Shown one piece after another: positions 6,198 to 43,002 of a stretch of DNA of 64,000 nt (position 1 is its first letter; each line of letters opens with the position of its first letter). The notes beneath the pieces are model-generated. The model was given only the letters and a program-made list of their open reading frames with translations, made no database searches and had not been told where the DNA came from. Source of the DNA: Mycobacteriales bacterium (GTDB lineage: Bacteria > Actinomycetota > Actinomycetes > Mycobacteriales > Pseudonocardiaceae); contig JBBRLM010000010.1 in assembly GCA_038231335.1 (NCBI GenBank), forward strand, positions 52,580-116,579. The letters run 5' to 3'. Made by a program: the position numbers and the translations under genes.

Positions 6198-6296
6198 GGT
6201 GGATCACGGTAGTCGCGGTGACGGGCAGGTGTACCGGAGATGATCGCGTCACCCCTTCCCCGCGGCCGGGCCCCGGACGTGGGTACCGTCGGTGCC

Positions 6297-7019
6297 ATGA
6301 CCCGACCCGGCACGTGGCGCGCAGCGACATGGTGGCGTGCGGTCGCCGGTGTCCTCGTGCTGGTCGCCCTGCTCGTGGTGGTCGTGCTGCTGGTCCGCTC
6401 GGGGGGCATCCACCACGTGCGGCGCACCGTGGCCGAGGCCGGCGCCTGGGCGCCTGTGCTGTTCGTGCTGCTGCAGGGCGTGGTCACGATCACCCCGCTG
6501 CCGCGCACGGTGTTCACCGTGGCCGCCGGCGTGCTCTTCGGCCCGGTCTTCGGGGTCGTGCTCACGGTGCTGGCCACCCTGCTCGCCGCGCTGGCGGCGT
6601 ACTGGCTCGTGGGGTTCGTGGGCGGCAGCTTCGTGGACCGGCACTCCCACCGCCCGGGCGTGGCCTGGGTGCGCGGCCGGCTCGACCACAACGGCCTGCT
6701 CGCCATGGTGTCGCTGCGGCTGATCCCGGCGGTGCCGTTCGCGGTGATGAACTACGCCGCGGGCCTGGCGAAGGTGCGCGTGCTGCCGTACGCGGTGGGC
6801 ACGGTGCTCGGCGTGCTGCCCGGCACGGTGGCCATCGTGGTGCTGGGTGACGCGGCCACCAGCGGAAGCATCCACCCGGCCTCGTTCGCGGTCTCGATCG
6901 CCGGCGGCCTGCTGGGCCTGGCCGGGGCGGCGGTGGCGTCGCGACGGGGCCCGGCGGCTCGCCCGGACCTCGCCACTTCTGTGGCAGCGCCGGAATCCGG
7001 TCCGGAAACAGCCGCATAG
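6297..7019 (+). CDS. TVP38/TMEM64 (SNARE-associated, DedA superfamily) membrane protein
   Basis: PLPRTVFTVAAGVLFG, LRLIPAVPFAVMNY, GVLPGT; TACCGT -10 7 nt before ATG. Confidence 0.88.
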   Translation: MTRPGTWRAATWWRAVAGVLVLVALLVVVVLLVRSGGIHHVRRTVAEAGAWAPVLFVLLQGVVTITPLPRTVFTVAAGVLFGPVFGVVLTVLATLLAALAAYWLVGFVGGSFVDRHSHRPGVAWVRGRLDHNGLLAMVSLRLIPAVPFAVMNYAAGLAKVRVLPYAVGTVLGVLPGTVAIVVLGDAATSGSIHPASFAVSIAGGLLGLAGAAVASRRGPAARPDLATSVAAPESGPETAA

Positions 7020-7051
7020 CTGCTGTTGCGCAGAGGTGGACCTCAGCGCGT

Positions 7052-7128
7052 TGGTGTCGGCGACGGGATTCGAACCCGCACTGTCTTGATCCTAAATCAA
7101 GTCTCTCTGCCAGCTGGAGTACGCCGAC
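7052..7128 (-). tRNA. tRNA-Leu(UAG), 77 nt incl. encoded CCA, short (5-nt) variable loop
   Basis: Acceptor GTCGGCG/CGCCGAC, discriminator A, anticodon stem CTTGA/TCAAG with loop TT-TAG-GA, T arm GCGGG-TTCGAAT-CCCGT. Confidence 0.93.
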
Positions 7129-7449
7129 TCCTGTTCCGCCCGCACCACGTGTCCGTGAGTGCGTGGCAGTTCGGACACAGGATACGGAGGTTCTCGAGCC
7201 GGTTGTCGGTGTGGTCGCCGTTGATGTGGTCCAGGGCCAAAGGGAGTGGCTTCTCCTGTCACTCGCTCAGACCGCACTCCTGGCAGTGGGCGGGCAGGAC
7301 GCGTCGAGGCCCAATCGCTTGATGTGGGCGCGCATCGTGTCGTACTTTCCCGGTCGCAGCCCGAGTCGGATGTGCACCTCCGCCAGCGTGCGGCTGGCCG
7401 CCACCGCGGCGGCGAGCTGCTCGTCGGTCCAGCTCCGAGGTCTCGGCGT
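7097..7449 (-). pseudogene. HNH endonuclease pseudogene whose reading frame ends inside the tRNA-Leu
   Basis: N-part (T)PRPRSWTDEQLAAAVAAS...RLGLDAS in one frame; C-part HCQECGLSE*QEKPLPLALDHINGDHTDNRLENLRILCPNCHA in another; nonsense at 7259-7261, frame break near 7300. Confidence 0.88.
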
Positions 7450-7455
7450 GTCCGA

Positions 7456-7477
7456 ATCATACCGAACGTCGGTTCGA
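7456..7477 (-). promoter_or_regulatory. LexA (SOS) box abutting a TATGAT -10 of the HNH gene
   Basis: CCGAAC-GTCG-GTTCGA at 7462-7477, 1 mismatch to actinobacterial TCGAAC-N4-GTTCGA; TATGAT at 7461-7456. Confidence 0.75.
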
Positions 7478-7501
7478 TCGAGTCGGGGTTGTCCGCAGGG
7501 G

Positions 7502-7969
7502 TCAGACCTTGAGGTCCTTGCGCAGCTTCGCCACGTGGCCGGTGGCGCGGACGTTGTACTGCGCCTCCTCGATCTTCCCGTCGGCGTCGATGACGAAGGT
7601 GGAGCGGATGACGCCGGTGACCGCCTTGCCGTACGTCTGCTTCTCCCCGAAGGCGCCCCACGCGGTGAGCACCTCACGACCCGGGTCCGACAGCAGCGGG
7701 AACGTCAGCCCTTCGGCGTCGCGGAACTTCGCGAGCTTGGCCGGCTTGTCGGGGGAGACGCCCAGGACGTCGAGGCCGGCGCCGTTGAGCTCGGCCAGGT
7801 TGTCGCGGAAGTCGCAGGCCTGCTTGGTGCAGCCGGGGGTGCTGGCGGCCGGGTAGAAGTAGACGACGACGCGACGGCCGCGGTAGTCCGAGAGCGACAC
7901 GGGCTTCTCGTCGGCGTCGGGCAGGGTGAAGTCGGGGGCCGGGTCGCCGGCCGCGAGTCGGGTGCTCAT
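7502..7969 (-). CDS. bcp: Thioredoxin-dependent peroxiredoxin Bcp
   Basis: YFYPAASTPGCTKQACDFRD; PrxQ-type. Confidence 0.95.
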   Translation of the reverse strand: MSTRLAAGDPAPDFTLPDADEKPVSLSDYRGRRVVVYFYPAASTPGCTKQACDFRDNLAELNGAGLDVLGVSPDKPAKLAKFRDAEGLTFPLLSDPGREVLTAWGAFGEKQTYGKAVTGVIRSTFVIDADGKIEEAQYNVRATGHVAKLRKDLKV

Positions 7970-8058
7970 GCACCGATCCTGGCACGCCACTCCGACGGTG
8001 ACCGACGGTGTGATCTACGGTGACCACCTCAGCAACCATCTGTACGTCAGGAGGCGTC

Positions 8059-42323: not shown

Positions 42324-42346
42324 GCGAACACATGTTCGAGTAGAAT
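42324..42346 (+). promoter_or_regulatory. LexA box plus TAGAAT -10 of the DUF222 remnant
   Basis: GCGAAC-ACAT-GTTCGA (42324-39), then TAGAAT (42341-46), GTG 7 nt later. Confidence 0.8.
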
Positions 42347-42353
42347 CGGGGAC

Positions 42354-43002
42354 GTGGTGGACGAATAGTGGAACGCAGCCGACAACGAGCTGCTGCACGC
42401 CCTCTCCGCATCGCAACAACGCGTGAACGCCGCCCACCGGGACATGCTGGAACTCGTCGCCGAAGTGGCTGCCCGACAACTCGGCGGAGCACACGGCTTC
42501 TCCACCGACATCGATCTGCTGCGCTGCACCCAGAACGTCACCAAGGCCGAGGCCCGGCGCCGGATCATCGCCGCCCGCGACGTGCTCCCAGGCCGCACCG
42601 TCACCGGGGAGGCCCTCCCGGCCGCGTTGCCGGCCACTGCTGCCGTGGTCGCCGAGGATGCGATCTCCCTCGAGCACGTCACCGTCATCTCCCGGGTGCT
42701 GGCCGGGCTCGCGCCGTACCTGGAGTGCCACCGCGCTGAGCTGGAGACCTACCTGGCCGCGCAGGCCCGCACCTTCGACCCGCACGAGCTGCGCACGCTG
42801 GGGCGCGCTGATCAACCTGGTCCTGCTGTGCGGACACCACCACACCGTGCTCCACCGCGGCGAGTGGTCGGTGACCATGGTTGATGATCACCCGCTGTTC
42901 CATCCACCACCCTGGATACCCGGTGGACCCCGCCGGAACGCGGTCCACCGCATCGACCTCGTCAGTCACCCGCCTTCGCCATCCCGCGCCGCACGGCGCT
43001 GA
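42354..43002 (+). pseudogene. DUF222/HNH (13E12-repeat family) remnant
   Basis: TAG at codon 5; DUF222-like N-terminal part jumps near 42805, with a frame change, to HNH tail NLVLLCGHHHTVLHRGEW. Confidence 0.85.

Follow-up and report, generated by a model that had tools for sequence, protein, structure and literature searches.

Cyanobacterial and plastid tRNA-Leu(UAA) genes carry group I introns with homing endonucleases, and the mycobacterial HNH genes of the 13E12/DUF222 type are under LexA control. Free-standing homing endonucleases are present in the tRNA regions of phages, examples being T4 SegB, the Seg and Mob proteins, and the HNH endonucleases of T5 (PMC2790892, PMC2988022, PMC13096335). 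The actinobacterial LexA regulon has been described for S. venezuelae (PMC9380542). In S. coelicolor, a type I tRNA-Leu(CAA) is charged by the single leucyl-tRNA synthetase (LeuRS) of this organism, while its UAG and UAA isoacceptors were reported to be class II (PMC6614811). Homing endonucleases have been studied well in phages, organelles, introns, and inteins; a family that is fixed to a single-copy tRNA gene of a cell is apparently new, and no description of a chromosomal HNH family docked on tRNA-Leu genes across phyla was found in the literature searched. Here, a stretch of 64,000 nucleotides (nt) from a Mycobacteriales bacterium of the Pseudonocardiaceae (contig JBBRLM010000010.1, positions 52,580 to 116,579), called the window below, was analysed for a broken HNH endonuclease gene that runs into a short-arm tRNA-Leu(UAG) gene (Table 1). 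The broken gene is probably what is left of a free-standing HNH homing endonuclease, belonging to a family specialised on the 5' side of tRNA-Leu genes. An earlier reading of the window (the original prediction) had taken the two genes for an SOS-controlled, tRNA-linked homing cassette that may have replaced the resident tRNA allele and is now decaying.

Intact relatives from the same genus (L005, L009, and L010) encode proteins of 216-240 amino acids (aa) that start with MPRxRRWTDEQL and consist of two helix-turn-helix repeats, a linker, and an HNH domain. Compared with these, the window copy, the only one in its genome, is a pseudogene with three lesions: loss of the start codon (ATG to ACG), a deletion of approximately 110 codons, and a nonsense codon. 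The ACG at the beginning of the reading frame is regarded as a mutated start codon because the intact homologs begin with the above sequence exactly there. In a three-frame translation the N-terminal piece reads TPRPRSWTDEQL...RLGLDAS and is followed, after an out-of-frame junction at approximately 7298, by ...PAHCQECGLSE, a stop, QEKPLPLALDHINGDHTDNRLENLRILCPNCHALTDTWCGRNRSRRTPAGRET, and a second stop; the reading before the junction is TPRPRSWTDEQLAAAVAASRTLAEVHIRLGLRPGKYDTMRAHIKRLGLDAS. Helix-turn-helix repeat 2 and the linker were lost with this out-of-frame deletion, and the first frame terminates at 7269-7267. An in-frame TGA at 7261-7259 occupies the position of a tryptophan in the homologs (SEWRG, with TGG changed to TGA). 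Decoding of this TGA as tryptophan was considered and dismissed, as the three independent lesions show that the gene is a pseudogene. The frame break near 7300 and the TGA at a tryptophan codon, from which the original prediction had concluded that the HNH gene is dead, are thus both real, the break being the deletion just described. The same holds for its claim that the HNH frame continues into the tRNA: the final stop codon, TGA at 7099-7097, sits in the 5' strand of the anticodon stem.

The HNH motif region of the window copy is intact, while its open reading frame is broken. The C-terminal piece matches Pfam HNH_3 with 25.0 bits against a cut-off of 24.8. In the relatives, which match Pfam HNH or HNH_3, the motif DH(I/V)NG...DNR..N...CPNCH and an upstream CxxC have been kept, these columns being invariant in the homolog alignment; the catalytic motif is intact and the nuclease class is that of homing endonucleases. 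An AlphaFold model of an intact homolog (mean predicted local distance difference test score, pLDDT, of 80) consists of two three-helix repeats and a beta-beta-alpha HNH domain. The gene is free-standing, as it is located outside any intron or intein and has a predicted promoter of its own upstream.

The linkage to a tRNA gene is a property of the whole family. When one genome per species was scanned with 14 aligned homologs, 566 relatives were obtained, and the best 80 of these 566 loci were analysed. A tRNA gene on the same strand was present 44-165 nt after the CPNCH motif in 67 of the 80. These partners are 43 tRNA-Leu(UAG) genes (all type I), 13 Leu-UAA, 5 Leu-CAA, and 4 Glu-CUC genes, and 2 genes that were detected by Rfam only and remained untyped; the Leu-CAA and Leu-UAA partners span both structural types. 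In three Myxococcota loci (L103, L112, L126) the HNH gene faces a convergent type I tRNA-Leu(UAA), and ten of the best 80 loci have no tRNA directly downstream. The hosts in the Actinomycetota are Pseudonocardia, Actinomycetospora, Jatrophihabitans, Acidimicrobiia, and Nitriliruptorales; those beyond this phylum are Chloroflexota, Acidobacteriota, Myxococcota, Bacteroidota, and Gammaproteobacteria. The stop codon is located inside the tRNA in about three quarters of the UAG-linked loci, so that the open reading frame running into the tRNA, noticed in the original prediction, is shared by most of these relatives. Many of the homologous proteins end in ...PA followed by the stop or in ...PAYSNWQR, which is the translated 5' end of the tRNA (GCCGGCGTAG or GCCGGCGTACTCCAAC...). 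In four Acidobacteriota loci of the Pyrinomonadaceae type (L101, L104, L107, L113), tRNA-Glu(CUC) begins 50 nt after CPNCH. Genus g17 of the same order has a longer relative, with additional C-terminal helix-turn-helix domains, whose end lies 5 nt short of a class II tRNA-Leu(UAG) at the bcp locus; within g17 this locus carries either an HNH gene of approximately 290 aa with a class II UAG tRNA (L148, L154) or a type I UAG tRNA without HNH (L157).

Two further observations on the relatives were made. One metagenome-assembled genome (MAG) of the Acidimicrobiia contains, on two contigs, two similar units of an HNH gene and a type I tRNA-Leu(UAG) (L078 and L080), which are either a true duplication or the result of strain heterogeneity. 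A subgroup of HNH proteins (L115, L120, L121, L122, L124, L128) from MAGs labelled as different phyla has the near-identical C-terminus RGKKLAKCRDETAPS and no downstream tRNA; it may represent a mobile element or a binning artefact.

In Pseudonocardia, the genus indicated by the names that the homologs carry, the HNH gene is always found at one locus, in the order bcp-HNH-tRNA, and its position was identical in 12 of the 12 genus loci examined. Apparent second copies in some genomes lie at contig ends and were rejected as assembly breaks rather than second loci. Among 137 species genomes, approximately 48 have a full-length open gene, 2 have a full-length gene with a TGA, approximately 33 contain fragments, and 54 have no match. 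The fragments are biased to the 3' end of the gene. Intact homologs are carried by, for instance, P. endophytica DSM 44969 (L051) and P. spinosispora DSM 44797 (L057). The ratio of nonsynonymous to synonymous substitution rates (dN/dS) is about 0.33 for the intact HNH copies versus 0.32 for bcp; by this measure the intact copies are under purifying selection. The dead HNH gene, the intact tRNA, and the decay after fixation that were proposed for the window fit the pattern in the genus (about 48 intact, about 35 broken, 54 without the gene). The original prediction held that the same tRNA allele with and without the HNH gene would speak against homing. The same tRNA was literally seen next to a remnant (L008) and next to an intact gene (L010), yet homing survives this comparison, since L008 once carried the gene, which has decayed there, and is no naive site.

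The HNH tree was compared with an RpoB tree that covers 24 HNH carriers, and the two trees are in conflict. P. yuanmonensis (L052) and P. lutea (L073) are near-identical sisters in RpoB, and the DNA around the unit is 91-99% identical between them. A tract of approximately 700 nt, which starts approximately 100 nt inside the HNH gene and continues through the tRNA and its 3' flank, is only 58-72% identical, and the two tRNAs differ in the length of the D-loop and in the whole anticodon stem. The HNH data reject L052 and L073 as sisters (approximately unbiased (AU) test, p = 4.5e-41). They also reject L050 with L058 (AU p = 0.014), where a similar divergent tract is present, and the placement of L051 within its host clade (AU p = 0.010). 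Judged from these comparisons, joint replacement of the HNH gene and the tRNA has occurred in at least one case, and probably in three, among the 24 species. The homing cassette is thus supported at the level of sequence comparison by the linkage to a tRNA in 67 of 80 loci, by intact, decayed, and absent copies at a fixed locus, by the conflict between the trees, and by a replaced tract that includes the tRNA.

The tRNA itself is the only one that ARAGORN detected in the 64-kb window (tRNA-Leu(tag), 77 nt). It matches Rfam RF00005 over the full model with 55.9 bits versus a gathering score of 29 and has a variable region of 5 nt, a standard cloverleaf, and no intron or other interruption. Among 30 UAG alleles, 99.8% of the cells in the stem alignment are paired and compensatory changes occur at 12 of 20 pairs, including all five pairs of the anticodon stem; the A73 discriminator is invariant. 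By these signs the tRNA is functional, and the intact tRNA of the original prediction was borne out by ARAGORN, by the full-length Rfam match, and by the pairing across the 30 alleles. It is the only UAG isoacceptor found in its genome, and UAG tRNAs of 74-78 nt are present at the bcp-linked locus in every same-genus genome examined. The short arm noted earlier is therefore real, but it does not mark a special allele of the HNH carriers, as it belongs to the only type of tRNA-Leu(UAG) across the genus. Three type I tRNA-Leu genes are present in the genome of the window: Leu-CAA (C8:85545-85619), Leu-UAA (C31:51549-51624), and Leu-UAG (7052-7128 of the window). In the complete tRNA set of genome G001 (L013-L048), the Leu CAG and GAG tRNAs are class II (84-85 nt) and the CAA, UAA, and UAG tRNAs are type I (each of 75 nt), none of these three having a class II copy. 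The lack of a class II UAG tRNA in G001 lends indirect support to charging of the type I tRNA-Leu(UAG) with leucine by the LeuRS of the cell.

Some peculiarities of these tRNAs are recorded here. C33 (loops CCTAGGA, CCTAGAA, TCTAGGC) takes the place of the near-universal U33 in about one third of the type I alleles of tRNA-Leu(UAG) (L054, L056, L058, L060, L075, L077, L079, L081, L083, L084, L086, L090, L098, L108, L002, L007), and positions 32, 37, and 38 are variable as well. Between genomes G000 and G001, which represent two species of the genus, tRNA-Leu(UAG) (77% identity) and tRNA-Leu(CAA) (79%) are by far the most diverged tRNAs, the median being approximately 97%. The type I tRNA-Leu(UAA) is 97% identical between these two genomes and 100% identical in G035, a genome from another family. 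Copies of 47 nt of the 3' part of tRNA-Leu(UAA) (positions 30-76) are located 3-11 kb from the full gene in seven genomes of the genus (G001:C1:2691900-2691946, G015:C22:23536-23582, G014:C26:41512-41558, G016:C27:86974-87020, G004:C68:11337-11383, G011:C15:156375-156415, and G022:C30:17241-17273); they look like the attachment-site repeats of integrated elements.

Expression of the HNH gene is predicted to be under SOS control. The LexA box TCGAACCGACGTTCGG, the TATGAT hexamer, the 6-nt spacer, and the ACG described in the original prediction are all present on the minus strand at the positions it gave. In the window, 2 sites match the box with at most one mismatch, versus 0.10 expected. Genome-wide, such boxes precede recA, a lexA-like gene, ruvC, a dnaE2-like gene, and genes of the DUF222 type; TCGAAC-N4-GTTCGA is therefore, on sequence evidence, the SOS motif of the organism. 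The layout of a box (0-2 mismatches, mostly 0 or 1), a TA...T hexamer, 6 nt, and ATG or GTG recurs in 22 of the 41 related loci with a locatable start, nearly all of the 22 being from Pseudonocardia or Actinomycetospora. It is present in L054, for instance, as tcgaacatgtgttcga tatgat ccgttc atg, and also in L055, L060, L066, L073, and others. The SOS control proposed for the window gains support from this recurrence and from the fact that the motif marks canonical SOS genes in this organism, and both LexA binding and induction of the HNH gene by DNA damage may be inferred. The spacing of 6 nt fits a leaderless transcript, which would begin with the first base of the start codon. The second box of the window, GCGAACACATGTTCGA, is located at 42324-42339, approximately 85 nt ahead of a DUF222/13E12-like HNH gene that is in fragments, spread over two frames (42423-43002, plus strand). 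Elsewhere in the same genome (C6:127362), an SOS box precedes a recA with an open frame of 714 aa, approximately twice the usual length of RecA, which suggests an intein-containing recA.

Besides read-through from the SOS promoter, the tRNA probably has a promoter of its own inside the HNH gene. The sequence cgtatcctg, which corresponds to the codons CGT ATC CTG (R-I-L of NLRILCPNCH), contains TATCCT, a -10 hexamer of the TANNNT type, and has been retained before the tRNA in the decayed loci L002, L006, L007, L008, L011, and L012. Of 33 intact UAG-linked genes, 32 use CGT for the arginine of this R-I-L, while CGT makes up 10% of the other arginine codons in them (binomial 3e-31; although the loci are not independent, their synonymous divergence is high, with a median dS of approximately 1). 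Third positions adjacent to this CGT vary freely, and the codon is variable in distant clades with other tRNA partners. The promoters of tRNA-Leu(UAA) in the genus contain cCGTAGGCTg, with TACGCT or TACCCT as variants, and CGTATCCTG matches the form cCGTAnnCTg. The stub that is kept in decayed loci, the conservation of CGT, and the promoter form of the genus together indicate that transcription of the tRNA probably starts inside the HNH gene as well, and this embedded promoter is probably constitutive. One transcript shared by the HNH gene and the tRNA, as originally proposed, is possible by read-through; it would not be the only one, given the apparent second promoter. The TATTCT in front of Leu-UAA is no more than a promoter variant. 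In the window, both the SOS promoter and the internal promoter appear intact, as does the tRNA, while the putative nuclease is dead.

The neighbours of the unit are bcp and a gene of the VTT/DedA type (Table 1). The rdgB gene that the original prediction had placed at this locus is not found nearby.

Table 1 Features of the bcp-tRNA-Leu(UAG) locus, with positions in the 64-kb window
Feature	Position	Strand	Remarks
LexA (SOS) box TCGAACCGACGTTCGG	7477-7462	minus	One mismatch to TCGAAC-N4-GTTCGA
Predicted -10 hexamer TATGAT of SOS-controlled promoter	7461-7456	minus	Abuts the LexA box; followed by 6-nt spacer
ACG at position of ancestral ATG start codon	7449-7447	minus	From alignment with intact homologs
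HNH endonuclease pseudogene	7449-7097	minus	Lesions relative to intact relatives; HNH motif region preserved
TATCCT, probable -10 of the tRNA's own promoter	7184-7179	minus	Within codons CGT ATC CTG; 50 nt upstream of tRNA
Type I tRNA-Leu(UAG), A73, encoded CCA	7128-7052	minus	ARAGORN and Rfam
bcp (AhpC/TSA peroxiredoxin)	7990-7502	minus	Upstream neighbour anchoring the locus; bcp-tRNA-Leu(UAG) synteny order-wide
VTT/DedA-family membrane protein gene	6240-7019	plus	Convergent with tRNA; downstream neighbour conserved in genus

A homing endonuclease of this kind could work as follows. DNA damage or incoming single-stranded DNA would lead to removal of LexA and production of the nuclease, which would cut tRNA-Leu loci that lack the HNH gene or carry a different allele. 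Recombinational repair would then copy the HNH gene along with the tRNA beside it. The promoter of the tRNA may have come to be the 3' end of the HNH gene (TATCCT in the R-I-L codons), so that the stub and the tRNA would be kept when the nuclease decays. The window copy is a dead example of this HNH-tRNA-Leu family.

Several results weigh against homing as the explanation. HNH identity correlates with Bcp identity within the genus (Spearman 0.70) and no near-identical HNH copies were found in distant hosts of the genus, from which it follows that inheritance has been mostly vertical. The replaced tracts distinguish two alleles that both carry HNH, and ordinary recombination at a fast-evolving segment could have produced them. 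Long persistence under purifying selection could reflect a function for the host. Between bcp and the LexA box, neither a tRNA stub nor a target-site duplication is present. Foldseek searches of the PDB with the homolog model gave nothing below E = 0.2 and generic HNH domains only (McrA, Cap5, GVE2), and the sole match in a profile search of PDB sequences was ScoMcrA (E = 0.048), with no specific homing-endonuclease relative. A scan of 6850-7650 for promoters of the E. coli sigma-70 type and for terminators found nothing, the consensus used not being an actinobacterial one.

It is possible, albeit doubtful, that the unit of HNH and type I tRNA-Leu overwrote a class II tRNA-Leu(UAG) next to bcp in the ancestor of Pseudonocardia, and did so independently elsewhere, thereby spreading short-arm tRNA-Leu in bacteria. 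The synteny of bcp and tRNA-Leu(UAG) extends over the order, the tRNA being class II (82-87 nt) or type I (74-79 nt) depending on the family, with both types in g17. Type I and class II genes differ throughout the acceptor, D, and T arms; they are not simple deletions of one another, and an in-place replacement of alleles must therefore have happened. In a MAG of the Acidimicrobiales the UAG tRNA alone is type I and has an HNH gene, while the CAG, GAG, UAA, and CAA tRNAs are class II. The co-replacement of HNH and tRNA in L052 points in the same direction, as do HNH genes beside type I CAA or UAA tRNAs in other lineages (L088, L105, L111, L103). What makes the proposal doubtful is that the families f2, f4, and f6 have a type I tRNA-Leu(UAG) by bcp without any trace of HNH, that the longer HNH relative of g17 lies flush on a class II tRNA and a further 20 loci, in other phyla, are partnered by class II tRNAs, and that the type I CAA and UAA genes of the genus have no HNH nearby: none was found by Leu-CAA or Leu-UAA in the genome of the window or at the 30 Leu-UAA loci of relatives.

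A bolder extension, and one to be held slightly more tentatively still, is that the unit acts as a gene drive for tRNA alleles with a lock-in. Each variant of the nuclease would cut all tRNA-Leu alleles except the one linked to itself. Such variant-specific cutting would account for the fact that no tRNA of the genus evolves faster than tRNA-Leu(UAG), for the covariation of its anticodon stem, and for the many alleles with C33. Induction by the SOS response would time cutting to the presence of foreign DNA and RecA. Since the stop codon is usually located inside the tRNA, cleavage by RNase P would leave a non-stop mRNA and keep the output of nuclease low. The drive would have made itself the promoter of the tRNA and would have carried short-arm tRNA-Leu into distant lineages, where it displaced class II genes. 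The hypervariability of the anticodon stem has an alternative explanation to such an arms race, namely relaxation at a rare codon, because fast evolution is also seen in the type I Leu-CAA, which lacks an HNH gene.

Domestication of the gene as an SOS module is unlikely. The HNH protein would then be a damage-induced nuclease or DNA-binding protein of the host, the co-transcribed tRNA would raise the decoding of rare CUA codons during the SOS response, and their linkage would be functional. The conserved LexA box and leaderless design, the dN/dS of 0.33 over genus-level divergence, the largely vertical inheritance, and the physical fusion of open reading frame and tRNA in one potential transcript would all be expected of such a module. 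A host function of this type is hard to reconcile with the loss or breakage of HNH in approximately two thirds of the species of the genus, in which the tRNA is kept, with the occurrence of the family beside different tRNA-Leu isoacceptors of both structural types, beside tRNA-Glu, and in unrelated contexts and phyla, with the replaced tracts and the conflict between HNH and host trees, and with a tRNA that apparently has its own promoter. It is very improbable that the tRNA merely lies by chance next to a decayed HNH gene of unrelated origin (such as a remnant of a prophage or of the 13E12 type) or to a scar left by an integrase island that had used the tRNA for attachment: HNH pseudogenes are common in actinomycetes (the unrelated LexA-linked DUF222/HNH fragment at 42423-43002 is one), tRNA genes are common integration sites, and 47-nt tRNA-Leu(UAA) 3' fragments occur in relatives, but the same junction recurs in 67 of 80 relatives and the same position in 12 of 12 genus loci, there is no integrase gene between bcp and the VTT gene, and no segment of the tRNA, its 3' end included, is repeated elsewhere in the whole genome beyond the shared T-arm. 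On the last two grounds an integrase-type island was rejected. An endonuclease encoded by a group I intron of tRNA-Leu was likewise rejected, as the tRNA is uninterrupted and an Rfam scan of 6500-8000 found nothing except the tRNA.

If the homing reading is correct, a selfish nuclease switched on by the SOS response has come to form part of the signal by which a tRNA is expressed, and it moves a tRNA allele between species. This would explain in concrete terms how tRNA genes are replaced in place, and maybe also the puzzling spread of short-arm tRNA-Leu in actinomycetes. The conservation of the SOS box, the evidence for an embedded promoter, and the mapped replacement tract are new here. The family is a possible source of natural nucleases with recognition sites the size of a tRNA gene. 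For annotation, short HNH open reading frames that end in tRNA-Leu genes should be recognised as this element, and the promoter of the tRNA should be sought inside them.

Among the systems described at the outset, the group I introns of tRNA-Leu(UAA) share with the HNH family that a selfish element is tied to a tRNA-Leu gene; in the window there is no intron, the tRNA being uninterrupted and the nuclease gene lying upstream of it. The DUF222/13E12 genes have the same TCGAAC-N4-GTTCGA box overlapping the promoter of an HNH gene, and genes of the DUF222 type in the present genome share this box. In contrast to these genes, the window family has HTH_Tnp_1-like repeats and HNH_3 but no DUF222, and it is present as a single copy at a fixed tRNA locus. 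As in the S. coelicolor tRNA-Leu(CAA), a leucine anticodon is accompanied by a short variable loop plus A73, and class II CAG and GAG tRNAs coexist with it. Whereas only the CAA tRNA is type I in S. coelicolor, the UAG, CAA, and UAA tRNAs are all type I in Pseudonocardia, the UAG gene has a nuclease gene as its neighbour, and C33 is present in approximately one third of its alleles. Short-arm tRNA-Leu itself was already known, and type I UAG and UAA tRNAs are an extension.

The phage endonucleases T4 SegB and those of the T5 HNH type also are encoded by intron-less genes with their own promoters among or beside tRNA genes. They are sporadic among relatives, and adjacent markers are co-inherited by gene conversion, for which the evidence in the present family is that of sequence. 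SegB is a GIY-YIG enzyme, while the window family comprises HNH proteins with N-terminal helix-turn-helix repeats. The Pseudonocardia-type HNH genes differ from the phage genes in being chromosomal in free-living bacteria and in lying flush on one tRNA, tRNA-Leu, within which the open reading frame ends. They differ, furthermore, in the combination of a LexA box with a putative leaderless start and in a 3' coding end that apparently serves as the promoter of the tRNA.

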